A DNA stretch of 64,000 nt from Euglena gracilis (Eukaryota). The number at the start of each line of letters is the position of its first letter. The stretch's first letter is position 1. Shown in pieces: positions 15,939 to 48,703 of this stretch. The stretch covers positions 9,488,634 through 9,552,633 of the forward strand of contig CP154954.1 of NCBI GenBank assembly GCA_039621445.1, in the 5' to 3' direction. Below the pieces are notes generated by a model. That model searched no databases. It had not been told where the DNA came from and saw nothing but the letters and a program-made list of their open reading frames with translations. A program made the position numbers and the translations under genes.

Positions 15939-18900
15939 GCTCAATTCCGCGTGGTGTGCCAAGGGGGAGTGATTGAAGCTGCTTCCTGCCTTTCTGCTAA
16001 GTGTTTAAAGTGAAAATACTGGCTACCACTCTTTTTACAAGACACAAATATTTTGCAAAATGCATCTGAATTTCGCAAAATCCATCATTACCAACCTCAG
16101 TTGGACGAAAAATGTCGCAACTGTCTCGGGGGTAGGCAGTACAGTTGTAATTTTCTGGGGAACCCCCCCCTGTACAGCTTCCAACACCCCCCCCCCCCGC
16201 GGACCCCCCCCTCCCCCCCTGTGCTTTGTCTCCTCTGGTGGGGATGCGGCAAGTGAGCCGCGAGGGGTCAGCACTGCCGATACTGCGTACATTGCCGCAG
16301 TCAGACCCTGTAGCACACCACCTAAAACACCTGTAGGTATTGTTGGTGATGCGACAGGTTCTGTCGGTGTTGGTGCCGTTGGCAGTGCTGGTAAGGAGAG
16401 GGGTGGTACCAGAGGTACCGCTGGCCGTTCAGCCTCAGGTGTAGGAGATTCGGTTTCTGAGCTTACATCTCCTTCAGGCGGAAGGGGTGTTCTGGAGCCC
16501 AGTGGGGCTGGGGGGAGAGTTGGGTGCTGAGGTTCATCAGCACATATTTCTTCCAAACCTTCCATGCAGTCTTCACCGCTCTCTCCATCGCTCTCTTCAC
16601 TGCCCTCCACCGTTTCTGGTGAAGCGGCAGGGGCTGCTGGCTGTTCCGCTATAGCGGTAGGCATAGTTCCTATTTGCGCAGTCGCGCTGCTGGGTGCCGC
16701 TGTAGCGGGCTGGGGAGAAGAACTACCAACAGAAGATTGACTTTCCTGAGTGCCATCAGGGACAAAAGGTTCTGCTGTAGCCGATAGGCTTGATTCCAGA
16801 TAACGCCGACCACGCCCGAAGACGGGTGGTGGTGTCTCACCAGGAATTCCCCGGGGAACTGGCGTTGCCGGTTGCGGCTGAGCTGTGACTGACGTTGCCG
16901 GTTGCGGCTGGGTTGAGGATTCCGATGGCGGAACCAGGAATGGAATCGTCATTTTGACCACTGTAATTTAGTCGTCAAATTAGAACAGGGCGATCGTCAC
17001 TGACAGCCACTTCGGTCAAACGTGGGTTGCGCGTCATACGGAAAAAATTTTCTGTCAGACGTGTCGGTACGTTTGTCGGCATGAAAAACGCATATTGGTT
17101 GGCGGGAAACCAAGTTAACACGTCAAAAAACGTACCTTCCTAGTGGGGGGTAATTGCCTGAAGCCAGCACGAACGGCAAACAGAAACGGCCGTGCAAAGA
17201 CTTTTTAAACAGAGTGCAGCTAACACCATTTTCGGCCATTTTTTGGACAATTGTTGTCTTAAAAAAAATTGAAAGCTTGTGGGCTGGACCTGGACCTCCA
17301 AAGGGGGGTAACCAATCACCCCCCCCCCCCGGGAGGGGTATTGCTAGTACAAAAGTGGCCACAGCTGTTGCACAAAAAATGGACGCCATCAAACAAAAAT
17401 GGATCACACCTGTGTTACAAAAATGGACCCTACCAGTGGTACAACACAGGCCCACCAAAAAATGCCCCACCTGTGAACCAGAAACGGCTTTCAACTCTGG
17501 AACAGAAATGGGCTCCAGCTGAGGCACTATCCCGATCCAAAACCGAGTGGGTCCATCTGGGGGGAGGTCCTGTGAAAAACGTGAACCCTTTCTTCCTGGG
17601 TGTCTGGCAAATTGGACCTGGTGGGGTTTATTTGTTGGTGGTAATTTATTTGGAGCTGACGTGTAAGCCTGTCTTGACACTTTAAAAGCGTTGGACTCAC
17701 AGTGGTTCTTTTTGTGCAATCACAGTTCACTTTGCCATGCGTGCTATGCAACATTTTGAAGATGCCTAAATTTTGGTAATGTGGTGTGAGCTGGAAGGGC
17801 ACCTGTAGCATCCTGCTCTGCAAAATGAAAAAAAAAATGAGAAGGGACAGGGAGAAGAAAACAAACCTCCTGTCAACCCTTCCAGATAACCACTTCAATG
17901 ATCAGCCACCAACTCCTTCCATCTCCAGCACCACCAAAAAACTTGACTTCTTCCTTCTCCAGGAGCATCGGCTCAGTTCACTTCAACGATCTGGGGGGGA
18001 AAGAAACTCACAGCACACTAACCCAACTGCGAACCACACCAGTCCTCGGCCAGAATACGGTCAGATAAGAAAGGCAAAGTGCAGATGACCAACAAATGTG
18101 ACCAGCACCGGAAACCCGAAGACAAGGCAGGCAGCTTCCAATCGCGAGGACCAAAGCCATTGCGTGAATATTAATGAGTCCGTTCGATATACAACTTTTC
18201 CGCTTGTCAGCCCTTTTTCCAAAAAGTCAAGTATTCTGTCAAACGAAGGCGTTTGTCAGGTGAAATTTGCATTCCTGGGCGGAACCTCAGGAGCCGTCTG
18301 CGGCTTTGGGCGTTGTGCTTTTGGCACATGTCTTTTCCGTAATCGGAAAATGTCCCATGGTTTCCGTTCTTCTTCAACCATCCTGTGGTTGAAGCGCAGG
18401 AGGGGTAGGGCCATGCCCAACTCGTTAACTCTGCCACCTTGGAAAAATGGCTGGAACAAAGCTCTATCGAGCGTATCGCCGAATCGGCGTTTGACATAAT
18501 CGTCAATGCTTTCCTTCTCGAACCGGGGTCTGATGGGGACATAGTCCGGGGGAATCTCCCTATCGGGATTGAGATGATAATATATCTCCATGATCTGGCA
18601 GGTCCAAGCCCTGAACGAGAACTGTTGCAAATACAGCAGGAGTTGACGGTGGTTGCGTCACCCGTTCGAGCTTTGGTGAACATCCTTTGGATTTCTGCAG
18701 AGGTGCAGGAGCATGATGCGCTTTGGCGCTGTCTGCGGGATATTGGCCTGTTGGCCTCGTCGTCCTGACCTTCGGCCTGTGGTTGAGTACTGCGTACTCC
18801 GAATCCCCAGAAATCCACTGCAAACTTTTCGTAGCAGTGAGAGCATCGGACGATATACGTCTGGGGGAAGCGGTCAATATCGACCACTTCAAAGTGATAG

Positions 18901-20562
18901 GCATATTGCCAGTGGTAAAAGACTTGCAGATTGCTGCAGAACATGTTTCCCGCCAATTTGGCGATATTTTCAGGTAGTGGGTAAAACTCCCACTCCAGGC
19001 CTTTTGGGCCTACACTGCGAATGCAGTCGAATAACTGCCGTAGCAGGTCTTTACCTGTGTTGTATCGGTCTTCCCGACCACAATCCAGGTTTGGATAGCC
19101 ACAGGAGTTCAGGAGCCTGCCGAAATTTTGGGTGGGGTATCCTGCCTAGAACCAAACGTGCCAGAATCCGGGCAGATTGTCCAATATCGGACCGAGGATG
19201 GCATTGCCCTCAAAGGCATATAAAGTTCCATCATGGTGGAAATCACGATTTCGCTCCGTAAAGAGCTGTCTGGTCACAGTCACGACAGGGGAGGCGACCA
19301 GGATTGGAAGGTTAAGTTCATTTTGGAACTTCCGCATGGCCTCGAATGCGAGGTCATGAAGGCTCTGGATGTGCTTGAATAGAGCTTCCATGTCGTCCTC
19401 ATAGACGTTCCGGTATTGGCCTTTCTGGCCTTTGCCTTGGCCTTTTTGGCCTGCAGTAGGTGCTCGTTTAGGAGCACTTTTGGCTTTACCCTTGCCCGAT
19501 CGGGCTTCCCATCGGGCAATCTCTTCTCTAGCTTGTTTACAAGCATGAGGACTGAGATTGGATGCAAAACGGGGGCCCAAAAATGCAGGATTCATGTCGC
19601 TTGTTCGACCAAGGAGTTCCTGTGGGGGATAAGCCGTTTTTGGTGTTGGGTATGCTGCAGGTTGATCCTGCATATCCGCCAATAGCGGTGGGTTATTGTC
19701 AGTGAGGGGTTCGCCTCTAGGCGGATCGATGTAGGTGGGATTGCGTACACGTTCGCGAGTATCGTCAAGTATTTTCTGTACTCGTGCACGCTCCGCAGCT
19801 TCATGCTCGATTTCTGCCCCATGGGCTCTTTGGGCCAGTTCGGCTTGTTCGAGCTGTTGCTGAGTGGGTTCAGGAACAGGCAGTACCTCGGTTGCGGCCT
19901 GTTGGCCTGGTGGTACTGGTGTCTCCTGAGGTGGTGCCATTGGTGCTGTTACAGGCTGTGGCGCCATTGGCGCTGCTACAGGCTGTGGCGCGGTTGGCGC
20001 TGCTGCAGCTGCCGACGCCGCTGCTTTTGCTGGCACCGGTCTGGGGGGTTGCGCCATTGGCGCTGGCTTGGCCGGCACGGCAAACGGTACGGGCACGGGA
20101 GGCGGTGCGGCCTGTTGGCCACCCGATGCCCGACGTTGCTGTGCAGGGGTAGCCTGTCTGGCTGGGGCTGGGGCCGGGGGTTTTGGTCTCCCCATTGGGG
20201 ATGAAGATTCTGGTCTACCCCGTTTCCCTAGGTCTGCCGGCCTGTATGGCTGTGACGCATATCTGCGTTCTGCAGACTGTGGGCCCTGGAGCTGTTCCAG
20301 GGATTGGTAGTACCGGATGGCTTGCTGAGGTGATGTGAAGCGGGGTTATGGAAGGGGTTCATGTACCGTTGGTACATCCTCTTCCACAGCCATACGGCCT
20401 TCGGCCTCGGCCTGCTCCACATCCTCAGCCCAGGATACAGGCTCCTGAGCCACCGGCTGATCCCGTTGTACGGGTAACTGACTACCAGATTCCAAATGGG
20501 CTGGATATGAAAATTGTGGTAGTGCCGATGACGGTTGCGTCGTTGGCTGATACGCATATTCA

Positions 20563-20965
20563 AGGTTGACGGCTTGTTTTTTTTGAAACAAAAAAAACAT
20601 GTTTTTTTTAAAAAAATATGTTTTTTTAAAAAAAAACAAAAAAAAACCAATGGAGGGTTTCTGTGAAAAAAATCTATGAAAGTTATTTTAAAGGAAAAGG
20701 TCATTTTTTTCTTTGCAACTTCGCAGTCCGTAAAGGGTGATGGCTTTCACATGAACCATCATTTTAGTATTTTTGGATGAAGGGTCTGGAAAAACTGAAA
20801 AAAACGCCACTTTGATGACCAAAAACATGACTTTAGAACTTTTTCCTCAAAAAAATGGCCATTTCGCAAGGAAAAAGGTCAATTTTTGCTTTTTCAAAAA
20901 AAACATGTTTTTTTTGCGTTTTTTTAACAAAAAACATGTTTTTTTTTTTTTTTTGAGAAAAACAA
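20563..20965. mobile_element. AT-rich MITE-like insert splitting the element A third ORF
   Basis: Poly-A/T insert between two GC-rich coding fragments; inverted ends CTTGTTTTT / AAAAACAAG; second copy near 15620-15938. Confidence 0.6.
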
Positions 20966-22258
20966 GATAGACGTCGTCTTTGCGGATATTGCGTTGGGGG
21001 TTCCCGATATGCGGGTGGTGCATACGAGGAGGGGACTGGGTATCGCGAAAAATTCGCGATGGCTGCACCATTGGTGCTGGGATATCTCCCGCCTCGCTTT
21101 CCGCCACTGGGGGGCTACGCTCCCGCATATATTCGGTGAATGCACCTGTGTGATGACGAGTCCGCGGCATCGGCGGTACCTGGATACCCAGTGTAGTGTA
21201 CACTGTACGCATGCTGACATCAGGGGGATATTCCCCAGCCATGAAGTACACTTTCCCTGTCATCAGAGTTTGGCCACAAGCGCACCATTGTGCTATAGGC
21301 CTATTGGCCAGGCCCAAAATCTGACGACAGTGGGTATCCCACATCACTTGTAAGGAGGGGTCTGCTCTTTCGAGTGCGCTAACGCGCAGGGCAGTCCGCA
21401 GAGTTTTCTCTGCGAGATTCACTAATTCTGCGGTGAATGCGGGGTATGGCACTGTTGGTGCTGGCTGTGGCGTCTCATGCGCCGCAGGGATCGCATAAGC
21501 GGATATACTACTGCTGCTGACTGCAGTCATAGCCGCAGGCTCCTGACCGGGTTGAGCAGCAGGAGCGGGCATCGCGTGCACGGCGTGTACCTGGTGCGGG
21601 ACACCCTGTACGTGTTGAGATTGGGGTTGTGTTTGGGGTTGTTGAGTCATAACGTACTGTGGTGTATACAGGATGGGAGGTGAGGGACCAGGCATGGCGT
21701 AATGCGCCTGCTCCATTGGAGGTGCCTGTCCCTGCCTCGCATACTATTGTTGTTCCATTGGAACTTGGTGTACCTGCTGAGGGTGTGGTTATTCCATTGG
21801 AACTTGATATGCCTGTTGAGGCTGTGCCGCATATGCAGCACCCATTGGCACGGGGGCCGCATGAGCGACTGGTGGCGGTTGCGCCTGAGAGGGGGGCGGC
21901 ATTTGTGCCTGAGAGGGGGCTGGCATATGTGACTGAGAGGGGTATGGCATTTGTGCCTGTACCATTTGAGGTGGGGGTGGCATTTGTGCCTGAGCCGCAT
22001 AAGCGGCTGGAGGGGATTGATATACCGCATACGCGGGCGCCCCTTGGGCTGGGGGAGCCGCCGCATAGGCGTGTGGGGGGTATGGAGGGATGGCATACTG
22101 TAGGGGGCGGTCCTGGGCCGCGCCCTGGGTCTTGCATTGGTCCGGGGACCAAAAACAACAACAAAAGTAGCTTGATGAGCTGTAGAAAAAGAAGAGAGAA
22201 ATTAATTGGGTTTGTGAGAAAAACACAGAGAGGGGAGGAAAAGGCCCATACGCCGATT

Positions 22259-31606: not shown

Positions 31607-31927
31607 TGTGTACCAGGCGTATGCTTCTGTCCCCTTCCGTTGAGGAAGTTAGGATGGAAGCAGATCCTATTAGGATTTCCTAATGGGTGCCCCTTCTCTC
31701 TCCACAGGTGGTATTCTTTTATATTCTTCTTATACCTTTTCCTTCCTTTCCTTGGACCGGACTTGGTTATCCAGTCCGTCCTCCCTGCATTGCTCCGTGC
31801 TTTGCTTCTTGGGAAGTGGGAAAAGGGATTTTCTGTTACTCTGATTTTCAGTTCCCAAGTAGGTGCGCCAAGGCGAAAGCGAAGGCTTTTGGGAATTGGG
31901 AAAGGGGAATTGGGAATCAGACGTACA
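31607..31927 (+). repeat. 5' LTR of element B (~320 bp, TGTAC...GTACA termini)
   Basis: First 138 bp identical to 47918-48055; ends GTACA two bases before TGGTAGCAG. Confidence 0.85.
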
Positions 31928-32278: not shown

Positions 32279-35200
32279 ATGCAAAGCACAGGCCCCAACC
32301 ATCAATTCAATTATGCCTTATTACAGGCATCATTGCAAGACATTGACCAAGAAAATGGGGATTGGAAGCTTTTATGTGAAAGTGCTTCCAGTTCCCACGC
32401 CGATGAGGCACAATTGATTCAATTGTCACAATTACAACACTTGTCATCATTGACAGTGGTCGGCGATGAGCCCTCCACATCCTTGGCTTCAGAGGCTAAT
32501 GCGGCCTCTTCCGCACTCACCTTGCCACAACGGGGGTATTCGCCTCTGTCTGCGGCAACGGTGCAGCTGCGCACACCGGAGAGACCCGTGGTGATTCCGC
32601 CACCGGGCTTTTCTGGTGATGGTGGGTTGGAAACCCCGTGTTTCTTTCAACCACCACCCGCTCTTCCACCGGCAAGCCCTTACAGAGCTTTGCCACCACC
32701 CCCCGATATCGGGTGCTATCCCGCACTACCTTGGAAACCGGAGACTCGCCTCGTGGTGCCGGAATTCTCCGGTACATCCCAACCCATGGATGACTATGGG
32801 AAGGGCACTGGTGAGCTCCTCACTGCTGAGGATGTGCAGGATATTGTTGCTCGGCTTCCAGGGGATCACCCCCTTGTGAGGCAGTTCAACCATGTGCAAC
32901 AATGCGTTGCAGAGTGTGCAACCGCATTGAACAAAGTGCTTCAGTTTGATGAGGACAACCAGAAACATGTCTTCACCAAGCTGGAACACTGCTGGAATTA
33001 CTTGCAGGAAGTTGGCAGATATTGCCAGAGGAATTTCGAAAGTGCGGGTATTGACCTTGCAAACTTTCGGGAAACCTTTGACAGAATATGCCAACAGCTC
33101 CCGCAAAACTTCCGGCAAATTAGTGAATGCATGCATGAAGCGGAAACCCGGAATGACTCCAAGTTTCTGCACTTGCATGACTCACTACAACGGTTATCGG
33201 GACAAATGGAGTCCTGTTCATCCGCGTTGTTACATTTACAACAACAGTTACATGCACGAGATTCCTCGTCTGCAACATCCAGCAGTGGTGGATTTGTGTC
33301 TATGGACCATTTCACCACATTGTCCGCAGCTTTCCATGAATCGCAACACCGCATTATGCAGTTGTGCGATGAAACGGAAAAGTTTCGGCAATTCCAGTCA
33401 CAAGCCAACGAGAATTTTGCTCCCCACACGTATGTGCGGCAGTTGGAGGAGCGACTTTCCCGTTTGGAGCAGAAAACCTGCTATTGTGACGCGAATCAGG
33501 TTGGATTATCCAATCTGAGCGCGAAAGTCGCGGAAATGGCACAACGGCAGGATTCCCTGCAGTTGCAGTTGCAATCCGACATTGGCGGGATTAACTCGGC
33601 CATTGCGGGTTTGCAACAAAGCTATTCCGCACTTTCCCACCGAGTTCCGGACATTAGCGGTATTCAGACTGCTATTGGGGAACTCCAGACCCGGTATGCA
33701 TCGGTGTCTACCAAAGTAACGGAAATGCAGTCTCTACCGGCAGGTTCCAGTTTTCGGATTACCGAGAACCTTGATTTCAAGGCATTTTATGACAAAATGC
33801 TCACTAACAATCAGGAAACCTTGCAAGATTTATGCAACAGCCTATTACGGCTTGAGGAATCGGTGAATCGGAATGCCCGATCCACGCAAAGTGATATTAC
33901 CAGGTTGGATGAGCGAATTTCCGCGTTGGTGGATAAGCCACAACCCGGAAATTTGCCCGTGGGTACCACAACCGCGTTCTCGGATAACCCTGCACCGGTT
34001 GCACCCACCACCACACCAACCAAGGTGACATCACCTTTGCAGATTCTCTCAAATGCTGTAAAAGCATTAATGGGACAACTCCAATTATTGGATAAGTCTC
34101 ACGGGAAACTTGTCCAAGATGTTACCGGAATTTCCGAAAGGATTCCGCACTTGGATGACTTTTCCCGTTACCGCAAGCGTATTCGCGCTTTGGAGGATGA
34201 AGTTGACCGTATTTGCGGCCAACTCCAACTCGTTGAGCATTTGGAGCAAAGTGTGCATGACTTGTCTGTGGGTTTGGATAATGTGTCCAACCAACAGCGG
34301 GTTTCACACCGCAATTCGGCAGTATGCATTGCCGAAGATGCGCCAAATGTTCCAGAGTCGCGTTTTCATAACCCGGCTCTGGGTGCACATGCACCACCAC
34401 CACCCGTGTCCCGAATGTCACAATCCGCGATTCCGCGAATTGTGCCACCATTGGCCTTGTCCACAACCCAAACCCAGTTTTCGGATGAATTTCCCATTAC
34501 GGGAACCGAATTTTCGGAAAACACGGCGATTCCGCCAAGTCTCCACCAAGAAATCCATCATTCCATGCTTGTGCGTGGAATGAGCCAAACCCGTACACCG
34601 GGAGTGGGTCACATGTTGCATGCGCGACATACCCCCACACCGGAGAGTCTCCCTATTACGGGTGACCAACAGGGTTTGCGACCGGATTTCCGGTACCAGG
34701 ATTCACCTTCACCAGAAATTTCGCGATTCCGACAAGAATCCGGAAAGGATACGCTTGGTGCTCGAGCGTACCCGGCCCCGAATCCACGGAATACCACCGA
34801 GGGCCAACGGGTTTTTCAGAAAGACTTCAAGGGCACCATCGCAATCGCGAATAAGGTGAAACCCCAGTGGGATGGTGATCCAACCACATGGAGACAGTTT
34901 TTCCGGGACTGGGAGTACTATTGGGCATTGAAAGGGCCAACCCAGGACACAAACCCGGAGGTGATCAAGGTGGAATTCATCGATTGCCTCCCAAGGGATG
35001 AAAAGGAGCGCGCGCGACAACTTGTCATTCGCTACCGCGTTTCCTTTGATGACCTGGTGGAGCAATACGCTTCCACCAGTTCAAGTTTGGTCGCTAGGAT
35101 TACCCTGGAGACCAAGTGGCGGCAATGCGCCCCACCCGATTGCAAATGGAAGTCCATTGACCTTTGGTATGCCAAATGGTTAGGACTTGCCGCTGAAGTG

Positions 35201-36256
35201 GATGAACTCAGTGAAAAGCAAATGCGCGAACAGTTTGACGCTGTTCTCATGCATTTCACGCCTAGCCTCATCAAGGATATCCATCGTGAGGAGTTGGCGG
35301 GTAATGCAATGACTCTTGACCAACGCTGGAACTACGTTTCCAAGCAATTGAAGCTATCACAGCTTCTTGGTCAGATTCAATCCGCGTATACCGCACACCC
35401 AACCGCTGGATTACCGGCTGGTTCGGTAAACGCATTGCAAAAATCACCGGTTTCACCTACTTCACCCACCACGGGATCGAAAACGCGATACCCGCGTTCT
35501 TCGAACCAAGCCACGGATAAAGTGTGCTTTTTGTGCAACAAATCGGGACATATGTCTCGGGAATGTCCTAACCCTGAAGCGCGAAAGCGTATTCAGAGTC
35601 CGCGAGGCTCGACCTCATCACGAGGTTCGGGTTCCTCCGCGTTTTCACGCCAATCGGGCAATTCACGGTCATCGGGTCCCCGTTCCGGTGGTATTAGTCC
35701 CCGGATCCCGTTCCGCGATGAGCGGAAACACGGTACCCCTCGGGGTGGGTCACCCGGTGCCCCGGCCAAGAAGCGTGATTCTCATCGCGAGACATCGCGA
35801 TCGCGTTCGCGAAGCGGATCATCTTCTTCGCGATCGTCATCGAGAAAACCCCGATACACCGGTCATGGTCGACGGGATATCCGGTCACCACGACGGTTTG
35901 ACGGGAAATCGGGAAACCGATCCCCCCGTTACCCAGAATCGCGACACAAATCTCGGTGTTCGCTTTGTGGATCGAGTGATCACCACTCATCCAAATGTCC
36001 GCGTTCTCGTTCTCCCCGCCCTGGCCAACGTCATCGCGGTATGAATCGCGGTGACAAGGGTCACTCCTCCAACCGCCATAAAGTCGGTTTCAAGATATCT
36101 TGTTTGGAGGATGACACCCCGGCTTCGGGCAGGGAGGGGGATGAGACCACGGATACCGATTTCGACGAGGCCCGCATGGCGGTGCGCACGTTGAAATCCG
36201 TTTATACCTCTAAAAGGCCCATAGCCGGCTATTCGGCCGGTTCGGACCTGGAGTAG
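32279..36256 (+). CDS. gag: Gag, 1325 aa: long coiled-coil-like N-terminus, capsid-like region, two CCHC zinc knuckles, RS-rich tail
   Basis: Open frame from ATG 32279; WDGDPTTWRQF; CFLCNKSGHMSREC and CSLCGSSDHHSSKC. Confidence 0.92.
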   Translation: MQSTGPNHQFNYALLQASLQDIDQENGDWKLLCESASSSHADEAQLIQLSQLQHLSSLTVVGDEPSTSLASEANAASSALTLPQRGYSPLSAATVQLRTPERPVVIPPPGFSGDGGLETPCFFQPPPALPPASPYRALPPPPDIGCYPALPWKPETRLVVPEFSGTSQPMDDYGKGTGELLTAEDVQDIVARLPGDHPLVRQFNHVQQCVAECATALNKVLQFDEDNQKHVFTKLEHCWNYLQEVGRYCQRNFESAGIDLANFRETFDRICQQLPQNFRQISECMHEAETRNDSKFLHLHDSLQRLSGQMESCSSALLHLQQQLHARDSSSATSSSGGFVSMDHFTTLSAAFHESQHRIMQLCDETEKFRQFQSQANENFAPHTYVRQLEERLSRLEQKTCYCDANQVGLSNLSAKVAEMAQRQDSLQLQLQSDIGGINSAIAGLQQSYSALSHRVPDISGIQTAIGELQTRYASVSTKVTEMQSLPAGSSFRITENLDFKAFYDKMLTNNQETLQDLCNSLLRLEESVNRNARSTQSDITRLDERISALVDKPQPGNLPVGTTTAFSDNPAPVAPTTTPTKVTSPLQILSNAVKALMGQLQLLDKSHGKLVQDVTGISERIPHLDDFSRYRKRIRALEDEVDRICGQLQLVEHLEQSVHDLSVGLDNVSNQQRVSHRNSAVCIAEDAPNVPESRFHNPALGAHAPPPPVSRMSQSAIPRIVPPLALSTTQTQFSDEFPITGTEFSENTAIPPSLHQEIHHSMLVRGMSQTRTPGVGHMLHARHTPTPESLPITGDQQGLRPDFRYQDSPSPEISRFRQESGKDTLGARAYPAPNPRNTTEGQRVFQKDFKGTIAIANKVKPQWDGDPTTWRQFFRDWEYYWALKGPTQDTNPEVIKVEFIDCLPRDEKERARQLVIRYRVSFDDLVEQYASTSSSLVARITLETKWRQCAPPDCKWKSIDLWYAKWLGLAAEVDELSEKQMREQFDAVLMHFTPSLIKDIHREELAGNAMTLDQRWNYVSKQLKLSQLLGQIQSAYTAHPTAGLPAGSVNALQKSPVSPTSPTTGSKTRYPRSSNQATDKVCFLCNKSGHMSRECPNPEARKRIQSPRGSTSSRGSGSSAFSRQSGNSRSSGPRSGGISPRIPFRDERKHGTPRGGSPGAPAKKRDSHRETSRSRSRSGSSSSRSSSRKPRYTGHGRRDIRSPRRFDGKSGNRSPRYPESRHKSRCSLCGSSDHHSSKCPRSRSPRPGQRHRGMNRGDKGHSSNRHKVGFKISCLEDDTPASGREGDETTDTDFDEARMAVRTLKSVYTSKRPIAGYSAGSDLE

Positions 36257-39200
36257 GGGAGCCCGAGGTCCGAGGGCACGGACCTCTGGGCTGATGAACA
36301 GATGGAGGTGGGACCTGATCAACCCTGCCCCCCCTGCCCATCTGCCTTTCTGGTCGGTACCCGGAAAATTTTCGGGTCCCCCACCCCCCACTCCAACTTT
36401 CCGCTCGGAATGTTGTGCAAAGTAGAAAAGGGTTCATGGGAAAGCTGGCAAGAAAACGTATTTTCGCCAGACCCTTCACTTTTCCTACCCCCCATGGAAC
36501 TTTTGGTCCAAGCGGAAATCAAAATCCAAAATTTTTGTACAAAAGTCAAAATTCTCATTGACACTGGTTGTCGCATTGCACTACTTTTTCGGTTTGGGCT
36601 GATACCAACCCCCCTCTTGGTGAAAGCCAAGAAGCCGATCAAAATTACGACGGCTGACAACACCCCCATGTGCGGTGGTGACTTGGGATGCTTTTTGGAC
36701 ATAGTCTTACCCCTCATCCCCAAGCACCACTCACACCCCCCCCAACCGCAAAATTTTCCGGATACCTGGGGATACGAATACGGAATCCATGGTTCTGACA
36801 TAATTCTGGGATACCCCTTTTTACGTCAGCACCGGCTGGTAGTGGATTGCCACTCCCACGGTTTGCGCACGTCACCATTCTCCTCATTGCCCCCCAAACC
36901 CTCATCACCTGTGGCGTCAACCGCGATAGCCACCAATTTTTCCACACCGTTTTCGAAAACTTTTACCCCGTTACCAACCACACCAACCAACGTTTTCCAC
37001 ACCGGGTGTACCGAGAAAGTTCACCCCCTGCCCATTGACACACCAACTTCCGTTCCCCATGAGGCAGGGCAAGCGAGTAGCGGTACCCCCCTCGTTCCAC
37101 TGTGTTACAAGACGAAAGCCCAAAGGCCTGAAGTTATAACGGTGTCGAGTAGTCGCCCAGCTGCACTAATACCCCGTTTTCCACCAGATGTATCGCTTCC
37201 AGATACATCTGTATACCCCCCAGCAGCTTCAAAAGCGCATCCCAACTTTTACACACACCCCCACCAGACCAACATGCGCGACCAGGACCACTACTCCGAC
37301 ACTTCCTTCCAATGTGTGCACTGTAGGAGAATTTCCGCCCAGCCAGATTTCGATTGTGGATGTCTAGTCCAAACACCAACACTAATCCCGATTTCGCGTA
37401 ACCATACACTTGGTTGCGGATCGCAATGCGCGACCGTACATCAAGTGCTCCAACAACGAGGTATTGCCTTGTTGTTTGGGACCGCGAAATCCGTGTCACA
37501 CACCTCCCCCACCTCCATCTGGCATGATATGGACTGGGTATGTACCCATCCAACCCATCAACCCTTGGGAATGCCCCTTGGGAGTGTGGATGACACACCC
37601 TTGACCTATGTTTGCGGATCCCTGAATTGCGTTACCGCTCTTCAACCCGCGAACCAGGTCGACACCTACGCGATGCGCGTCTGGAACGCATTTAATTTTG
37701 GTCAATACCGTATTTTGGAGGAATGGTTCTCCAAAATCGCGGCTTTGGCTGATTCCTTCGATTTGTCGTTGGAAATTGATGCGTTCTCATCAAAAGCGCA
37801 TGCGCGCTTGTCGCGATGTTGGTCGCGACATACCAACGCATTTCTTAAATTCTGGGGTGATACGGTGCTATGGATGCACCCTCCCCCAAAACTTATCCCG
37901 GATGTGGTGGAGAAAATCCTCCGCGATGAAGCGCGAGGAGCTCTCCTCATACCCGTCAATCCGAATGCGGATTGGTTTCATCAACTATCCTATGTGTGTT
38001 TTCATTGGTGGGATTTACCCGCTGATGTACCACTATTTGAGGATTTTTGTGGTATATTATTACCACCTGTTAAAGAAATCATTTTTCGCGTTTGTTTCTT
38101 CGACGCATTCGGAATATCCGATTTGCGTGTGCCAAGATACCTTGGTACCAATGGGGATGCCACACCCTCAACGCAGATTTCTGCGGTCATTGAGAGTGCG
38201 GACCAACATCCCAAGTCTGCTGATTATTGTTCGCGAATTGCTCGCGAATTTCATGGTGTACTGGATAATCCAGTTTACGCCTGCGACATCGACCCCGCGA
38301 TTCGCGGTCCGTTCGGTGTTTGCAAAATCGAGCTCAAGGATGGCGCTAAACCTATGCACCGGAAATTCTTCCGTTGTTCGGGTGAACGCGAACAGGCTCT
38401 CAACGAGATGATTGAGAAGCTCATCCAGCGGAAGTGGATTATCCCTTCCAAGAGCGAGTGGACATCACAAGCTTTTGTGGTGCCCAAACCCGCTGACCAG
38501 TCTGGTCAGAAGAAGTGGAGACTAGTGCTGGATTACCGGTACCTGAACTCCCAAACGAAGGATGACCCCTTCCCGTTACCGCTGATCGAGGATTTGATCA
38601 CAAAACAATCGGATAACCGGTTGTGGTCAATCTTTGATCTGGAAGACGGTTTCCATCAGATGCATTTGCATCCTGATTCACAACCGTACACGGCATTCGT
38701 GACATCCAAGGGTGTGTACCAATGGACGGTACTCCCCATGGGTGTTAAGAATGGCCCAGCCATGTTTCAACGCATGATCCAGTGGGTTTTGCGCGATTTA
38801 CCGTTTGCTCTGGTGTACATCGATGATGTAATGGTGGGAACCCAACCGCCATCCGCGAAATCGGGCGAGGATATCCTCGACCCGCATTATCGCGATGTGC
38901 GCGCGGTATTATCCGCGTTCCAAAAGCATGTGCTTTTTGTGAAGGGTTCCAAAATGCACCTGTTTCGCAAAATTATTAAGTTTTGCGGACACATTCTGAG
39001 CAACGGGCAGCGTAAAGCCGCACCCAGTAAGATGGAGGCCATTAAGAAATGGACTCCTGAGGTCATTAAGACTTTAACGCATTTAAAGGGATTTTTGGGA
39101 TTAGCCCAATACTACGCGATTTACATGAAAGATTTCGCGAAAATCGCGGTACCCCTAACCCGACAACTCAAAAATCGGACACCCGATAACGCCAAAGTCA

Positions 39201-41383
39201 TTTGGGATGACCAAATGCGCGAGGCCTTGAATAAAATCAAGGACTTGCTTCTCGAGAACGTGGTTCTCGATATCGCGGATCCATTCAAACCGTATGTCCT
39301 GGAGGTCGACAGCAGCGATTACGCTGTTGGCGGGGTCCTTAGCCAGCATAATGCGGCGAATGAACTCCGACCTGTGGCTTTCTTTAGCAGGAAGCTACAG
39401 GGCGACAACGGGAAAGGACAGGTTAAATGGAGCATTCGCGAAAAGGAGACATATGCCATTGTGCTAATTCTCCAGAAGTTCCGCAGCTGGATAGCCAGCA
39501 GCTTGGTCCAGATACTAGTGTTGACGGATCATGAGAGCCTTCAACACTGGTATACCGAGGACCTGAACAAGGCCATGTCATCAGTTGGCAGAAGATGCCG
39601 ATGGCATGAGTTCTTGAGCCAGTTTAACCTGGTGGTAGTTTATCACCCAGGTCATACGCAAAAAGTTGCGGATCCTCTCAGCCGAGCCCCCTGGTATTAT
39701 CCTGGGAACCCGGATGAGGGTGATGCGACTTTTCATGGCAGCCATGAGGCTGACCAGTTCGCACGTCGATCCGACGCTGCGGACAACATGCTCGATTCAC
39801 TACCGGTTTCCCGGGTGTATCGCAGCATCGCCATTTCACCATTGCGTGGAAGGCGCCGGCGTGGACGCACTGCCGGACCCCGTCGCATTACGCGTACGGA
39901 AACTCCTACCCCCCTATTTTTCCGCGAATGGGATTATTCGCGTGACCCTATATACAGTACCATTGTGAATAGACTTCGTAATGGTGAATCCATAGAGAAT
40001 TACTCTCTATCACCATTGCGGCTTATTTTCCGGAATGATTCTGGTTATAAATATTGTATACCCCAAGACCTGGTTGATGATGTGATTTTGAGCTATCACA
40101 ACCATGGTCACCCTGGGGCCCCCAAACTTCTTTCACTAGTGGGTCGCAGATATTGCACAACCCTGAGTGAAAAAGAATTATATTCGCGCTGTTTGCAAAT
40201 TTCGCAACGGTGCCAAATTTGTCAGGCTGTGAAACCGCGCAGAGGTACCCCCCCTGGTACGATGGACTTTTTCCCCGTACCACCTGACATTTTTACGTCC
40301 CTCTGCATGGATTTTCTCGAACTTGAACCTTGCAAAGGATCAGATGACAAAATTTACGATTACGTTTTTGTTGTCGTCTGTCGGCTGAGTGGGTACATAG
40401 TAGCCATTCCATGCCGGAAAGCAGGGTTGACAGCCCAAATTTTGGCATCTATATTCCTGGAGAAATGCATCTGCTTAATGGGTTTACCGAACGAAATTGT
40501 GAGTGATCAAGATCACTTGATCTCTTCACGGGTTTTCACAACTTTGTGCGGTTTACTCGGCATTGAGCAGCATTTTTCCACTATATACCGCCCGAAAGGC
40601 AATGGTAGGGCCGAGGCAGCCGTGAAATCCGTTGTCAATATGCTTCGCCTTTCACTGGCTGACTCGGGTAAGAATTGGTTATCCGTTCTTCATTGGTGTT
40701 TATTTTACATCAATACCTTGCCAGGGTTGGTATTACCACACTCACCGTACAAAATTGTTTTCGGACGTGACCCTCCGGCCATAGGGGATATCCCCTCGGA
40801 GAGACCCGCCCGAAGTAGCGTCAGCTGTGAAACGTGGTTTGCAGAAGTGGAATCACTCCGCTCTGCAGTCCAATCACGTATCACAGAAATTCATTCCAAC
40901 AAACGGAAATCGTTTTTGCAGAACTTCAACACACCTGTGTATAGTCCAGGTGACCGCGTGTGGGTACGGAATAACCGCACCCGCATGCAATCTTCCAAGC
41001 TAGATCCTCTTTGGCTCGGCCCATGCGAAATTTTGGAGAGGTTAGGTAGTAGCGGGCGATATAAAGTTGCCTTGCCCAACGGGATTGAGGACGTCCATAT
41101 GGACGACTTCAAACCGTACCTAAGCCCCCCAGACGGAAAAGCTATCCCCTGCCTATATTTCAAGCCCCGTTCCAGATTACCTGAAACGGACGACTTTGTG
41201 GTCGATAAGATAATAGACCACAAGGTCGACAGGGGTGTGCACTACTGGAAAGTTCGCTGGAAAGGGTATGGGCCAGAGGAGGACACTTGGGAGCCAGCAT
41301 CCAGTTTTGTTGGATATGTCCAACAGGATTGGAAGCTGTGGAACAAGCGCAATAACATAGACATAAACATAAACACTTTCTGA
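36257..41383 (+). CDS. pol: Pol: aspartic protease, Dam-like methyltransferase, RT, RNase H, integrase, chromodomain; in frame with gag
   Basis: ILIDTGC; IDAF..NAF..W..LWMHPPP; YIDD (38816-38827); [18 protein letters not shown] and [26 protein letters not shown]; no internal stops. Confidence 0.97.
37690..38110 (+). other. Dam-like N6-adenine DNA methyltransferase domain within element B Pol
   Basis: [20 protein letters not shown]...[30 protein letters not shown].....WF matches the motif spacing of phage/DIRS Dam domains. Confidence 0.8.
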
Positions 41384-41578
41384 AACGATTTCGTTTTGGA
41401 GAATGCGTGTGTTTTATGTGAATGTTTCGCGTTTATACCCCCCCCTGCACTTCATTATTTCTCTATCTTTCTCGCAGAGTTTTGATTAAGATAGAAGCCT
41501 TACTTTTTCAGTGCACCAGCACTCAAAGCGACTGACAACAAGGTTACCCTTAGTTGTCGTCGTCGTTCGGGTAGCATC

Positions 41579-44500
41579 ATGCTGCCTGGGCGCGGACCTG
41601 GACCAGGTCCACCATGGCCGCAGCCTTCTGGCGCGCCATACCCCCAGTACCCTCAGTATGCTGAGGCCCCGATTCCGGGTGCCCCACATGCCGAGAGGAG
41701 CGCAGCCCCGGTATTCGCCGCGGCTACCAGCAGCCGGTCCGCATATGCGGTACCAGATCCATCTGCCGTCCAGCAGCCGGCACCTCAGCCACCAGCGCAG
41801 CGCAGATCGCGCCTGCCCCCGTATGCGGGAGAGATGATCTTCCGCACTACGGAGACGTTGGAGCGGGCGATGCGTATGTGCGCACACCCCCCAACGGAGC
41901 CCTTTATGCAAGCCCTTTGGGATGCATACTGTGCTCAGTTGTTGGTGGTAGCCAACACCCTGTGGCTCAGTGGTGTCCCTGCGGTCAAGCCCTGATGACG
42001 GGGAGACGGTATTTCTCGTCCGCAGCCGATTCCGGCTTCGAACCCGGCGAGACCATGATGGACCTGGGCGTGTATGTGCCGCCCATGCTGCAAACGCAGA
42101 CGCCGGTGGGATCCCACACCGTGCATATGCGTGAGCACACGCCCCCACCGGTAGGTGAGGCTGTGCATGTCCCACCTGGGATGACGAGAATTTTTGCTCG
42201 CCCGCCCTCGCCGCAGCGAATGCCGCCGCGCGAGCCACCAGCGGAGCAATTTGTCTCGCGGTACGCGACGCACGCGGATTACCCGCGCGGCGCACGCGTG
42301 CTCCCAGCCGGACAGTCGGACGTGCCCTCTGAGGCATACGTCCAACACATGTTCATGCACTGGATGCCACAAGCATCACCGGTCGCCCCTGTCCCTGGCG
42401 TTGAGCCACGGAGACAGGCGGAGCCCATAGTGGTGGAGGATGAACCTCCCCACCGAGAGGCAGCCCGACCGCCCAGTGCAGCCCCTGTCCAGACTGGGGA
42501 TGTCCCCCGTCGGCAGGAGGCTCTCTACTATCATATGGCACCTCCGGGAACCGAGCAGGATGAGCTTGCTCGGCACTTCCTGCAGGAGCCAGTATTCGCG
42601 TCTGAAGAGCACCGGACGAGGTATTACGCCTCTCTGGCTGCCCTTCAGGGTCGTGGATACACCCCCTACCATCCGTACCAGCCGCAGCTGCGGGTGGCAA
42701 CCCCGGTATTACCCGGTGAGCCCCCGGCAGGAGCGGCAGGATTACCTGCCACCCTGAAGCGCGATAGGGTTACGGAGAACCTTACCCCACAGCCCAGGCG
42801 ACCCAGCCCACGGGACGCGGAAGGCGGTGCGGCAATGCAGGTGGAAGCCAGCCAGGATACCCCGGCTGGGCAACCACCGGCAGTGGCACAGGCAGCGATG
42901 AGCCGTCCTGTTGCCGCAATGCCACCGCCGATCCCTCCGGTATGGAAGGAGCCGCGACCCCCTACGCCGAAACCAAGCCCACGCCAGGCTCCTAGCCAGC
43001 GCCCAGCCACGCCGTCACCGCGACGTGCAGCGGAACGACAAGGTCCCTCCCCAGAGATGGAATGGGAAGGTACCGAACCGACTCCTGCCGCACCGAGCGC
43101 CCGACCCTCTGGTATTCGCCAGACAGGGAAGGACAAAGGTAAGGCTGAGGGCAAAGGCAAGGGAGAAGGCAAAGGCGTGGCCGGCAAAGGTAAGGGTGAG
43201 GGGCAAGGGTAAGGGTACAGCCCGTGAGGAGGAGGAAGAACCAGCAGAAGTCCTCTCGGACTTTGAGCATATGCTCAGGTTCAAGGAGGAGCTGGAGGAC
43301 GAAGGCTGGCGAATGCAGCATGATTACCATGTTGCAGGAAACCGCCCCGTCACCCCTCCGGAGGCAGTCATCGAGGTGGTATTACACCACACGAGAACAG
43401 AGTCAGACAATTCCATTACGGAATTGACCTGTACGCCTTCGAAGGTGAAGGTGGCAGACCCTTGCTGGATATCCAGCCGGGTTTCTGGGAACTCTGGTTT
43501 TGGCTGGGATACCCCTGCCAGAACTGGGGTCTCTTCAGCGACTCCACTGGCCGCAGTTACCTGCACCAGTTAGGATTTCGGGACCAGCATGTGTTGGCCC
43601 GAAGGCTGAAGGCAATCTTCGACTGTATTCACACAGTCGGGCCCCTCGGTGTGCAGTGGAAATACTACCCACTGAACCCCGACATCGAACGCCTGATCGA
43701 GGTGTTGTGGTGCAACAACCTCCAGGTGTGGCTGGTGAGCCATTACGGCTCCACCTTCCGCGTTAAGCGCGTTTCCCTGGCTTACCCACAGAGGTATGAC
43801 CTCTGTTGTAAGTATTGCCGGCAGGAGTTTCCTGTCGACTTCTGGGGATTCGGCGTACGCGGAAGTCCTCCACCGCCTCGGGATAACCCGGGCCTGGAGA
43901 TGGGACGCCGCATGCTTATGCATGTGTGCCGCGACGCCCCGGATGTCCAGGGCAAAAGTCGCCGCGTCCATAAGCAGCGTATTTTTATGCTGCAACAGTT
44001 CTGGTGGCGAGCCTGGACCACCTACGTCATGGAGGTGTATATACATCTCCGTGACCCCCAGGACGATAGGCCTGGTATGGAAAGCTTGCCACCAGACTAC
44101 GGCGACCCCGTTGAGGGACCTCGTCGTCGTCGGGTTATCGCCGACCTGCGCCCCAACTGGCACCTGGCCGGGATAGACCTGGAGGAACATTTGAGGCGAC
44201 AGTTTGGCGGTACCCTCGACAGGGAGGTATTCCTTCCGCTGATGGCTCACCCGAAGGCCATCCTCGACCTGGGTATGCCAATTCTGGCATGCGCGCAGGA
44301 GTTCGAAGAGGGCTTTTTCGAGGTCTGGGAAGACACGCGTTACCGCGGCTTCCTGGGCCCGAACAGGCCTGCAAACGCTTGGGTGCAGCCATCATGGCCG
44401 CCACCCTGGCCCAACAGTGCCAGCAGCAGCACGCTGGCCTTTTACAGGCTGGCGGATGCCCAGGGATGCCGATGGCACCCCGACGATCCTCGTTCGCCCG

Positions 44501-47100
44501 AGGATCTGCGCGCCTTCATCGCCCCAGAGGATGAACCTCTGGCGCGAAGGAGACGTGAGGCGTCAGTCGCTTCCACCACCGCGATTCCGCGGCGGGAGGA
44601 ACGCGACCGCAGCCCCTCCGTCACCATTCTGGAGGCAGCGCCGCCGTCTCCGACAGGAACGGCTGTATCATTCGTCTCTGCCCCGCGAGCGGCAGGGGAA
44701 CGATCAGTTTCCCCGGCCCCCGCGGCGGCAGCTCCCGTCTGTCCACCGGTAGGTGGAGACGAGGAACTCCCTCAGGAGGAAGGCGAGAACGTGGAGGATA
44801 TCCTCTACGCTGCTCTGCATCCTCTGGCACAGCCTAGGCCAGACGAAGCACCCGCAGGGGATATACCTGTGGCTGCTACGCCTGTTCCAACGGCTGAGCC
44901 TCCAGCCGAGGTGACTGGTATGGTCGTCGAGGATATCCTCGAAGAATCTGCCAGTCCCACAGCACGCACCTCGTTAGGAGGCCGTGTGCTCGGCGCCGTA
45001 GTCACCGGCATTACTGCCGTGGCTGCTGCACTAACGCCACGAGGTGGAGGCGCAGCATCAAGCTCCGCCGCTGAGGTCGTGGAGACACCAGATGTCGGTG
45101 CGCCACCACACACATCTCTGGCAGCAGTGCAACCACCATCAGGGGATGAACCCCAGCCGACAGAGACATCTGTCGCACCGGCTACATCGGAGGATGAACC
45201 TCCCGTAGCACCTGCGCCAGCGGTTGTGGAGGATCAACCTCCTAGACCGGATGTCGAAATGGAAGTGGAGAGTATACCCCCACGACCACCGACACCGCGC
45301 AGGGTCCCTGCAGTCCCGAGGACAATGGCAGAGTTTCTGGGAGCGCCAGCGCCTGTGGAAGCACCGATTCCGGTGACGGCCACAGTACCACGCTTCGTCG
45401 GACAGGATGAACCTGTTCGGCGACGGCCGGCTGAACAACCCCAGGAACGAGTGCCAACCCCTCGGAGCGTCATGCGCGACCCAGCGGTCAGTATGCCCGC
45501 TTCGCCCAGACGGCAAACGTCTACTCCGGCACCATCGGCTCCTGATACCAGGAGTAAGCCGCAGGCGTCGTCTCCTGATTCCGGGAGTGCGAAGCCGAAA
45601 GGAGGCAAACCGGGTGCTGCACCCTGTAAGCCCCCTTCCAAAGGCGGTGATGGGAAACCACCACCGAAAGGTGGCGCTGGAGGTCAGACTGGCGGACAGC
45701 CGAAAGGCCCTACGACAATGCACGACTATTCGGCCGTTGCATCGTCCGGGTACGGCCAGAGCAAACCGAAAGGTAAGGCTCGTGGTCGACAGGCCCAATC
45801 TTCCGCCGGATCGACGGATGAGGAGCAGGATGAACCTGCTTCACCTCCTGTGTCTGCGGATGCCCAGCTCTGGACCCAGGATATCCTGACCGGACTAGGC
45901 ACCGTGGAAGAGAGGACGAAGAAACTGGCTGCTATTAGGCACCAGAAAGGGTCACTGAATCGATGGATTCAGCCCCTCTTCGTCCGAGGAGAACCTTTCC
46001 ACTATGTCCCGGAACATACCTGGACATTCTGGAACAGGCGCTCACCCAGAGTACTGGCACAGTACTTTGGCGAGGACTGCGTGTTGGATTTCCAGCACGG
46101 CACGTCCTTTGCCTGGACGTGCACCGTATGCCACCATGTGCGGCATAACCAACCGCTTGTGCATGTGTGCAAGCGGCAGGTGCAATCCTCGTGGTTCCAT
46201 CACAGGGCATATGTGCCGAACTGTGTGGCGCTCGTATGTGGCGAGTGCCTGAATGCCTGGAAGCACAGCTTGAACTACTCCTACAGTGAGAATGCTCACG
46301 ACAGGGATATCCCTGCCTTGTGCATCAACTGTATAGGAGGCAAGTTCGTGCAGACTGCTGATGGAGCAGTCACCACCATTGTCCCCCAGCACTGGGAGAC
46401 ACTGGAGAAGTGGAAGAAGGAGTACAAGCAGGTGGAAGGACGCCTGAAGCACTCCGACTTCAAAAAGGTAGAAAGCTACCGCCACACGGGAATGGCCCGT
46501 GAGTTCCAGATCGACGCTGGGGCAATGCGCCTCGCCGTCGAGGAACATGCCAAGGTAAGAATGCCTTACCTCTGGACTGATGGCGACTGGGAGACACAGG
46601 TTTACCCCCTGTTCTCCAAGCGTCAGCATGGCGGATACGCCTTGCCACTGTGGCCTCCTGAAGAACACGATTTGGTGGACTTCAGAGGTTGGTTGGCGGC
46701 TGTATTACGGCCCCATACCGCAAGAGCTCGGACAGCGAGGTGGATGTATGACATCAACTTCAAGCAGACCCCGGGGATGCCCCCGCAGGTGCCTGCGAAT
46801 CACCCCCGGATGAATTACATCATCTGGCCGGTGATGCTGCCCAGAATTTTCTGGGAGCAGCTCCAACGGTATCTTCAGCATCATGCTGAACGTACCAGGG
46901 AGAAGCTGCCGGATAATTGGATCAAGGACTGGGAGACCCCTTCCTTTGATGTCAACGATCCGGAGCTCAACACCATTCGGAGTGAATCAGCTCCGCCGCG
47001 TTCCCCACGCCAACTGGAGTTGGTTGAGGACCCATTAGGGGACCCCCAACACGACTACTGGCGTGAGGTCCGCGAACGTCCAGCCGATAAAGGCAGGTGA
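41579..47100 (+). CDS. Large third ORF of element B (~1800 aa if joined; frameshifts near 41955, 43200 and 43370), Pro-rich with Cys/His domains, function unknown
   Basis: Overlapping ORFs 41579, 41878, 42911 and 43462; the element A homologue reads through the breaks in one frame. Confidence 0.75.
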
Positions 47101-47907
47101 GGTGTCTGTCAGCGCCAATGCGGCGTCTTTCAGCACCCTCGTCAGGTATTCGCCTGACACCCTGTTTGGGTATTCGCCCGAACACCCCCTTCGAAGACCC
47201 TTTGCGGTATTCGCCGCTAGTAAGTTCCCACCGGGATGCTGCCATGTGCAGGATTCCGTGCGCATGCATGAACACCCCTCTCCCCTCTCCCCTCTCGCGG
47301 GCGTGCGACACGCAGCGCACAGGGCCGACGGCCTCTTTTCCTTTCTCTTTCTTTTCTTTTTGGCCGTTTGAGGCCTTAAGGCTGCCAGACAGCACAACTT
47401 TTCTGGCCTAAGCCAACCCCCCACTCCTCTCTACTTTCCCCCGGGGCAAATGCTGTCGCCGGCAGTTGGTTTTGTAGAGTAGGATTTCCTTTTGCGTGGT
47501 CAGGTTTGACTGGCCACGCGCCCTGCCCAGGTTTGACTGGTCAGAGGCCCCCTCCTTCCACACCCTCCCCATGGGTTTTCCTGGAATGCCCATGGACCAA
47601 CCCCCGTGCCTTTGGCACACCCAAACTGGGTGGATGGGTTTGCTTGGCAAGGAAACCTGCCAGCCCCATTTTCCCCAGTGGGCTATAATATACTATACCC
47701 CATAAGCCACCGCAAAATAGGTGAAACCATTTTGCGCGTTTTGGGCTTTTTGGGTCCCCTCCTTTCCGCCCCCCCTTTGAGTGGACCCCTGTGCGACGGA
47801 AAGGGCCCCTGTGGATGCGCCAGGGTGCACCTCCCACAGACCAGGTCTGTGTCCGAAATCCCTGTGGCCAGAATGCCTGGTCCAAAGGGGAAATCGGGCA
47901 GAGCCCT

Positions 47908-47917
47908 GGGAGGGGGA
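47908..47917 (+). promoter_or_regulatory. Polypurine tract of element B
   Basis: GGGAGGGGGA immediately before the 3' LTR start TGTGTAC. Confidence 0.85.
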
Positions 47918-48055
47918 TGTGTACCAGGCGTATGCTTCTGTCCCCTTCCGTTGAGGAAGTTAGGATGGAAGCAGATCCTATTAGGATTTCCTAATGGGTG
48001 CCCCTTCTCTCTCCACAGGTGGTATTCTTTTATATTCTTCTTATACCTTTTCCTT
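47918..48055 (+). repeat. 3' LTR of element B, only the first 138 bp present
   Basis: Identical to 31607-31744, followed by CCATT and host RT sequence. Confidence 0.9.
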
Positions 48056-48703
48056 CCATTGCCTTTGCCTTGGGTCTCCATCAGGCGCTGCAACAGGCTT
48101 CGGCCAATTTGCCCAACACGGTGTGGCAGGCATGGTACTTGGACGACGGCACTGTCATCGGCCCTGCCATTGATGTTCTGCCTTTTACGGCGTCTCTGGC
48201 CACGGCACTTGGCAGCGTTGGGCTCCACCTCAACCCCTCTAAGTGTGCCTTGTGGTGACCAGGTGTACCCTGTGCCACTCCGAAACCCCCGGCTCTTCAG
48301 ATCCTGCCTCCCGACCACCTTCCACAAAACTTCCCGGTCACCCCATGGGGACCGGGCAGTGGCATCCTGTGCCTAGGGGTACCCTGCGACTATCCTGGTG
48401 ACTGCACCTTTTCTGACACCGCGTGGGCCAAGGCATCCGAAAAATTTCAAGCTACCATCTCGCGCCTCCAACAACTGCCGGATCCTCAACTCCAACATTG
48501 TTTGCTGCGCAACTGTCTGGATGGCTGCCGCGCGTCACGCACCTTCTGCGTCAGACCAACATTTCTCCGGGACTCACAATGTGCAAGTGATCTCCGACTC
48601 CATCCGGAGTGCTGCCTCTGACATTGTGGGGGCACCCCTGTCTGCCTTGCATTGGAAACAAATCACCTTGCCGTGCAATAAGACAGGGTGGGGCATCACA
48701 GAC
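48056..48703 (+). mobile_element. CRE-like element 1, continuation of RT
   Basis: Resumes in frame: GP|IAFALGLHQ..WYLDDG..LNPSKC..LGVP..DPQLQHCLLR..LP....GWG. Confidence 0.88.

Follow-up and report, generated by a model that had tools for sequence, protein, structure and literature searches.

A long, conserved third open reading frame without known relatives, broken in one copy of a Ty3/gypsy chromovirus of Euglena gracilis

Long terminal repeat (LTR) retrotransposons with an additional open reading frame (ORF) are known. The case analyzed here, a sense-strand ORF (ORF3) in a complete Ty3/gypsy chromovirus of Euglena gracilis (element B, 31607-48057, plus strand), is unusual in that the ORF is longer than pol, belongs to no described family and occurs in a host lineage whose retroelements have hardly been studied. 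Element B lies in a 64,000-nucleotide stretch of contig CP154954.1, which is called the window and to which all positions refer. Among the closest described systems are the additional ORFs (aORFs) of plant Ty3/gypsy elements of the Tat, Ogre and Retand groups (PMC7264820, PMC11963269). As far as the accessible parts of these articles go, they resemble ORF3 in that a long stretch or an additional sense ORF lies downstream of pol and ahead of the 3' LTR, and they share with it the lack of env features, the unknown function and the restriction to a family. However, ORF3 belongs to another host kingdom and to a chromovirus, spans approximately 1,840 codons and, going by Pfam and by the protein search described below, has no sequence likeness to the aORFs. 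The LTR elements of bdelloid rotifers resemble element B in their non-env third ORFs and in the modular gain of genes downstream of pol (PMC5408684, accessible text). The rotifer ORF3s covered by that text are known families (a paramyxovirus-type fusion protein, a GDSL esterase and a DEDDy exonuclease), whereas the Euglena ORF3 matches no known family. In Euglena itself, the 'EpiLTRs' (LTR and DIRS elements with DAM and DNMT domains; preprint 10.64898/2026.05.21.726589, accessible portion) are chromodomain-bearing, Ty3-like elements that gained coding capacity, as element B did. Their methyltransferases are described there as lying inside pol or appended to it, while element B has none in pol and carries instead a separate 5.5-kb ORF without a methyltransferase match.

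ORF3 is real, conserved and without known relatives, and it is broken in element B. The initial annotation, made from the letters alone, had placed a sense-strand ORF in the env position, and this was confirmed: ORF3 runs from the ATG at 41579 to the TGA ending at 47100 in four frame pieces (f1, 41495-41995; f2, 41665-43212; f3, 42902-43573; f4, 43324-47100), with f1 and f3 in one phase and f2 and f4 in another. The features of this region are as follows.

41384..41578, plus strand: spacer between pol and ORF3, with pyrimidine tracts ending in CAG at 41474-41476 and 41510-41512
41579..47100, plus strand: ORF3 of element B, approximately 1,840 codons, ATG at 41579 and TGA at 47098-47100
41810..42159, plus strand: conserved block 1, with QWCPCGQ at 41968-41988 and the first frame break within
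43126..43203, plus strand: Lys/Gly-rich basic repeat with the second frame break at its end; a similar K/G-rich stretch occurs in element A
43399..44346, plus strand: conserved block 2, with YAFEG at 43432-43446, CxxC..DFWGFGVR at 43804-43860 and HxC at 43912-43929
44983..45045, plus strand: Gly/Ala/Val-rich hydrophobic motif inside a disordered linker
45871..46962, plus strand: C-terminal domain, with a Cys/His cluster at 46120-46332 and a PGMPPQ..NHP..IWPV motif at 46771-46833

The window also holds a diverged and heavily decayed Ty3/gypsy element on the minus strand (element A, pol at approximately 27428-22259), and the pol proteins of the two elements are 71-85% identical. All three blocks that had been proposed to have homologues in element A were found there by tblastn, at 35-49% protein identity. 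Block 1 matched at 36% over 84 aa and 41% over 103 aa (E 2e-14) and forms a single unbroken frame in element A. Block 2 gave the best joint value (43% over 160 aa plus 35% over 150 aa, joint E 3e-51), and the start of the C-terminal Cys domain matched at 49% over 72 aa (E 4e-17). The hydrophobic linker motif, which was not among the blocks named earlier, is 50% identical over 40 aa (E 7e-4) and is also kept in the database protein P0007. The start codon and the first residues of ORF3 are common to both elements.

Synonymous sites are saturated between elements A and B (pS 0.50-0.86 overall, 0.70-0.86 in the ORF3 blocks). The nonsynonymous value pN was 0.35-0.46 in the ORF3 blocks, compared with 0.39 in gag and 0.10-0.24 in the pol core; since protein similarity was the criterion for picking the blocks, the pN/pS ratio is biased, and the dN/dS ratios are unusable because dS is saturated. 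That ORF3 is constrained follows instead from a protein likeness that outlasts this saturation. For a comparison among other copies, contigs of the DNA run X2 and of the RNA-labelled runs X15, X17 and X18 were aligned to element B; 24 sequencing runs were listed (17 studies), 20 of which contain part of the window and 16 half or more of the sampled words. In the contigs of the other runs, the C-terminal domain was no more diverged than gag-pol, and the linkers differed more and were gapped. The domain showed nine differences in 1,699 nt (0.5%) in X15, against 0.7-1.5% elsewhere, and 27 differences in 949 gap-free nt (2.8%) in X17, against 1.8-3.5% elsewhere.

When residues 22-1221 of the last ORF3 piece were searched exhaustively with HMMER against 1,835,955,588 representative proteins (E<=0.001), 25 matches were obtained, 16 at E<=1e-10 and two at E<=1e-30. 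They fell on the C-terminal domain (14), block 2 (five: P0009, P0018, P0022, P0023 and P0027) and the linkers (five), the last one being a repeat artifact. Relatives elsewhere were found at 25-60% identity, and the matches to the C-terminal domain were 25-52% identical, besides the near-identical P0005. This protein is 99.6% identical over 230 aa and carries the source name eukprot:EG_transcript_25142, a Euglena gracilis transcript. All matches are fragments of at most 431 residues, save the repeat artifact and P0013, and P0006 is a relative that has lost Cys positions. The claim of a selected accessory protein of unknown function is supported by the similarity between elements A and B past saturation, by the relatives elsewhere and by the transcript match. 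As a separate observation, the predicted proteins P0013 and P0021 match 45145-45276, where 44-67 residues are 79-84% identical to an ORF3 linker, and one of the two has a sub-threshold match to a response-regulator receiver; both linker matches likely stem from an exonised element fragment or a chimeric transcript.

Beyond these relatives, the searches gave little. Pfam yielded nothing for the four ORF3 pieces at E<=0.01 nor at E<=1 and no family above threshold for their relatives, and profiles of the C-terminal domain and block 2 alignments (A1 and A2) found no PDB sequence at E<=10. In word-indexed protein searches, none of 3,906 candidates passed for block 2, alignment A1 retrieved two proteins (P0005 and P0024), and P0017 retrieved itself only. 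Pattern matches to the C-terminal domain relatives numbered 83 in metagenome contigs and 14 in viral contigs, none confirmed in either, and the exact 29-nt string from the ORF3 start had no match in metagenome contigs. BLASTP of the ORF3 pieces against gag and pol gave no match either. A captured ordinary host gene or an env glycoprotein had been named as what would overturn the annotation, and neither was matched by Pfam, PDB sequences or folds. Judged by these searches, ORF3 belongs to no known family and appears to be lineage-restricted.

The C-terminal domain has eight conserved Cys and two conserved His. Its pattern, C-x2-C-x10-H-x-C-x17-C-x4-C-x2-C-x24-C-x2-C, is kept across the relatives in alignment A1, as is the motif PG(M/L)P.Q...N(H/Y)P....I(W/F)P(V/A), and block 2 has a C-x2-C ... 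H-x-C set of its own (alignment A2). Because of the conserved ligand pattern, zinc binding by the C-terminal domain is likely, and its spacing points to a pair of cross-brace zinc sites. With the known cross-brace domains (RING, ZZ, PHD) it shares the eight-Cys/two-His spacing and weak fold rows; its ligand order, however, is not an exact RING consensus, the Z scores are in the noise range and no Pfam match was obtained. Structure prediction and Foldseek, which had been proposed as a check, were run on the C-terminal domain and gave no significant fold match. From the single sequence, AF2 reached a pLDDT of 32.6. The weak rows (Z 2.1-2.7, model residues 91-188) point to Mind bomb MZM, dystrophin ZZ, Nbr1, KCMF1 and the Slx1 RING, the sole zinc-related Pfam row was DZR at E 0.7 for P0017, and the leads from protein-language-model features all remained below 0.9 (giant-virus hypotheticals and RING 0.83, C5 methylase 0.84). 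The likeness to RING and ZZ domains is treated as a lead only.

In element B, the reading frame of ORF3 is lost three times through a change in length of one base: within a short C run near 41957, in a G run of the GKGKG-coding repeat near 43200, and at 43387-43394. Frameshifts had been annotated at 41955, 43200 and 43370; about three breaks with gag-pol intact were indeed found, but the third lies approximately 20 nt from its annotated place. Translation in this copy stops after approximately 138 codons, so the ORF3 protein cannot be made from it. The element B family is present in a very large number of copies (X2 alone contributed 123,861 contig pieces), and other copies could be compared at each site. 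At 41957, one extra base was present in 16 X2 contigs (105,366 of 516,088 summed depth, which does not equal copy number) and in the one contig each of X15 and X17. One base fewer was present at 43200 in 13 X2 contigs (102,484 of 297,240 summed depth, to be read likewise) and again in the single contigs of X15 and X17; X18 has no cover at either position. Around 43390 the difference was listed in X17 only, where a loose end, read by hand, has 30 letters against 29 in the window and carries f3 into f4. Each break is thus absent from some copies, in which the frame is open there.

As other copies differ by one base and stay in frame, the breaks are supported as decay of the element B copy or its subfamily. 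A sequencing or assembly error is unlikely because the state of the window is also present in the independent DNA run X2, which makes the breaks real DNA. Programmed recoding is unlikely as well, since no slippery heptamer (X XXY YYZ) occurs at 41957, 43200 or 43390 and other copies have a continuous frame. The two LTRs of element B match at 140 of 140 positions despite the breaks; the broken lineage therefore stayed mobile, and an intact ORF3 was not needed in cis for transposition.

With regard to expression, a transcriptome contains the C-terminal part of ORF3, given that P0005 is transcript-derived and 99.6% identical. EG_transcript_25142 was not found in the supplements of PMC6366073 and PMC12267456, which are possibly incomplete, so that this is no evidence against translation. 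The RNA-library run X17 contains a fraction of 0.30 of the sampled window words. The second CAG of the spacer (41510-41512) and its pyrimidine tract align with a similar site in element A, and the spacer CAG sites are candidate 3' splice or trans-splice acceptors, as far as their sequence indicates. Euglenids process their mRNAs by spliced-leader trans-splicing.

Taken together, we consider it reasonably probable that ORF3 is a real, lineage-restricted accessory gene whose product is a mostly disordered zinc-module protein, expressed from its own mRNA, acting in trans and dispensable in cis. The protein of approximately 1,840 residues would consist of three folded, Cys/His-bearing blocks joined by long disordered linkers rich in Pro/Ala/Gln and in Lys/Gly. 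It would be translated from its own processed mRNA by way of the conserved pyrimidine-tract-CAG acceptor approximately 65 nt upstream of the ATG, and in a euglenid the use of this acceptor would most likely be spliced-leader trans-splicing. The protein may then act in trans as a zinc-dependent scaffold for host or element partners, and not as an envelope; zinc binding, expression route and trans-acting role are what we infer from the evidence above. Complex retroviruses express their accessory genes from spliced subgenomic mRNAs, and the parallel to them is one of working only: a gene downstream of pol, with a candidate acceptor in front, trans-acting and not needed in cis. ORF3 is not homologous to their accessory proteins, is larger by an order of magnitude, and its splicing is putative. 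In a bolder version, which we regard as unlikely, the element would exploit the spliced-leader trans-splicing of its host to release the accessory mRNA from the genomic RNA, and the ORF3 product would be a largely disordered zinc protein of a new fold family that acts in trans on the host chromatin or silencing machinery in favor of the element. If true, retroelements would thereby gain both an accessory factor of a new class and a novel route to a subgenomic message.

Several results weigh against the reading as an expressed, zinc-binding accessory protein. The AF2 model of the C-terminal domain built with 13 sequences (alignment A1) is mediocre (pLDDT 58.4, pTM 0.46), neither PDB nor BFVD gave a Foldseek row for it at E<=0.001, its best VIA structure match (Z 3.6) is in the noise range, and none of the RING, ZZ and PHD Pfam models matched the domain and eight relatives at E<=1. 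The constraint test between elements A and B carries the bias stated above. As to the spliced or subgenomic transcript for which RNA-seq had been proposed as a check, no splice joint occurs inside ORF3 or at the proposed acceptor among the RNA-run rows listed; as a further 209 joints and 1,748 loose ends lie beyond these rows, absence does not follow. The sole RNA-library contig over the acceptor (X17 record 14, 40909-43322) runs from pol straight into ORF3, with the limits that contigs cannot reveal rare forms and that the X17 library may contain DNA. Finally, most of the X2 summed depth carries the broken state of the window at two sites; a large share of the family thus lives without an intact ORF3, which weakens the claim that it is important for transposition.

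This last point also belongs to the case for a relic, that is, a once functional ORF3 that decays throughout the family, with open copies that are older or less mutated and conservation that reflects past selection. Element B is broken three times despite its identical LTRs, the X2 summed depth is approximately 0.64-0.76 million over ORF3 and 0.83-1.37 million over gag-pol (depth again not being copy number), and the lost Cys positions of P0006 fit as well. On the other hand, X15 and X17, both of low depth and labelled as other organisms or samples, show open-frame variants only (at two sites, one of one contig in each run), no stretch in X15 is less diverged than the C-terminal domain, and the blocks outlasted the synonymous saturation between A and B, and we hold family-wide decay to be quite unlikely. 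Somewhat less unlikely is an origin by capture, in which ORF3, or at least its folded blocks, came by transduction from cellular genes of the host lineage and travels as a passenger, any role in the element being secondary. The GC content at third positions hints at a separate and possibly captured origin of ORF3, for which no cellular source was found: it is 0.70 (43387-44451) and 0.67 (45829-47097) in the folded blocks compared with 0.52 in gag and 0.53 in pol, and block 2 of element A deviates in the same direction (0.55-0.63 versus 0.41-0.45). Several relatives are, moreover, stand-alone predicted proteins of 320-431 aa. However, none of the 25 matches contains a Pfam domain diagnostic of a cellular family, the entire order of blocks is kept in two element lineages with pol proteins only 71-85% identical, and in P0010 and P0017 the domain is preceded, as in ORF3, by a Pro/Ala-rich linker, which gives these proteins the appearance of fragments of comparable long ORFs.

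The position of ORF3 would also suit an env-like or membrane-active protein for membrane association or cell-to-cell transfer, with the Gly/Ala/Val-rich segment as fusion peptide or anchor. A Kyte-Doolittle scan (19 residues) found one borderline hydrophobic 19-mer (44977-45033, score 1.60), a RVLGAVVTGITAVAAAL-like segment kept in element A and in P0007; no second segment reaches 1.3, and in P0007 the kept segment is interrupted midway by a Pro. The N-terminus (MLPGRGPGPGPPW) is Pro/Gly-rich and thus no signal peptide, the best window of the first piece scoring 0.86 at residue 108. Hence, of the two absences annotated earlier, that of a signal peptide stands, whereas that of a transmembrane segment holds nearly but not strictly. 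As Pfam contained no env family match and BFVD no fold row at E<=0.001, an envelope-like role seems very improbable. Fainter still is the chance that block 2 is a very remote C5 DNA methyltransferase, like the domains on other Euglena LTR elements. Language-model features put it nearest to the PF00145 clusters (0.84), and, by eye, its strings 'LYAFEGEGG' and 'GYPCQ' may resemble methyltransferase motifs I and IV. DAM and DNMT domains on Euglena LTR elements are described in the accessible portion of the preprint (10.64898/2026.05.21.726589). However, by the tool's own account a third of shuffled proteins reach 0.84 too, and Pfam reports nothing for PF00145 at E<=1. Element A has Thr in place of the Cys of 'PCQ', and P0022 lacks the motif. 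The two strings are separated by approximately 30 residues, about half of what is usual for these motifs. Without Pfam backing, this assignment was rejected for now.

The remaining parts of element B and the ORF3 counterpart of element A are the following.

31607..31746, plus strand: 5' LTR of element B, 138-140 bp, beginning with TGTG
32279..36256, plus strand: gag of element B, approximately 1,325 codons, with a zinc knuckle (Pfam zf-CCHC, E 3.8e-6)
36257..41383, plus strand: pol of element B, with reverse transcriptase (RT), RNase H, integrase, SH3-like domain and chromodomain
47101..47917, plus strand: 3' untranslated region, with a purine tract at 47908-47917 adjoining the LTR
47918..48057, plus strand: 3' LTR of element B, from the repeat comparison with 31607-31746
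12958..22137, minus strand: ORF3 region of element A, with many stops and shifts and an ATG near 22137
21536-21021, 20345-19146, 19253-18337, 16361-16242 and 13329-12958, minus strand: pieces of element A homologous to ORF3

The gag and pol frames of element B are open, and the domain order is that of a chromovirus (RT - RNase H - integrase, a chromodomain at the integrase C-terminus, and the zinc knuckle in gag). The Pfam matches in pol were RVT_1 (1e-26), RT_RNaseH_2 (4e-24), rve (5e-8), Integrase_H2C2 (1e-6) and Chromo (1e-9). Gag ends with TAG at 36254-36256, directly followed in the same frame by pol, where the sequence continues with GGGAGCCCGAGG; as the two share one frame parted by a single UAG, this suggests that pol is expressed by stop-codon read-through rather than by frameshifting. 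Gag is unusually long; its middle is an extended coiled-coil-like stretch with a weak NPV_P10 row that stays below the cut-off, and its tail, where the zinc knuckle lies, is rich in Ser and Arg. The LTR (31607-31746) itself has a pyrimidine tract ending in CAG (ccccttctctctccacag), and a further pyrimidine tract with CAG lies at 32262-32274, 4 nt upstream of the gag ATG. An Rfam search of 29000-50000 gave no match.

Element B is inserted in the reverse-transcriptase frame of a non-LTR element, which is split exactly at the 5' LTR, and the sequence repeated at both junctions (CCATT or ATT) is a likely target-site duplication. The split frame occupies 29660-31606 and 48058 to about 48400, and its pieces matched no Pfam family. 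By eye, a 2A-like 'GDIESNPGP' string was noted in it at 29897-29923 and a YLDDG RT motif past the insertion. 2A-like peptides occur in trypanosomatid non-LTR elements and would fit a euglenozoan host. In element A, the end of the ORF3 region is lost beside tandem repeats and satellite. Positions 1-12245 consist of a 79-bp tandem satellite (approximately 140 copies, mostly 94-97% alike) that adjoins the truncated end of element A, and a tandem repeat of approximately 296 bp (units 91-94% identical) lies at 13329-14517, within the C-terminal part of its ORF3 region.

The Euglena gracilis genome is given as 2.37 Gb with 22-33% LTR elements in the accessible text of PMC11252322. The biology of its LTR retrotransposons is almost undescribed. 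A conserved third gene that is longer than pol and without known relatives means that Euglena elements carry functions beyond gag and pol. How a downstream gene of a retroelement is expressed in a trans-splicing host can be tested directly with this element, and its broken yet mobile lineage provides a natural contrast for asking what ORF3 contributes.

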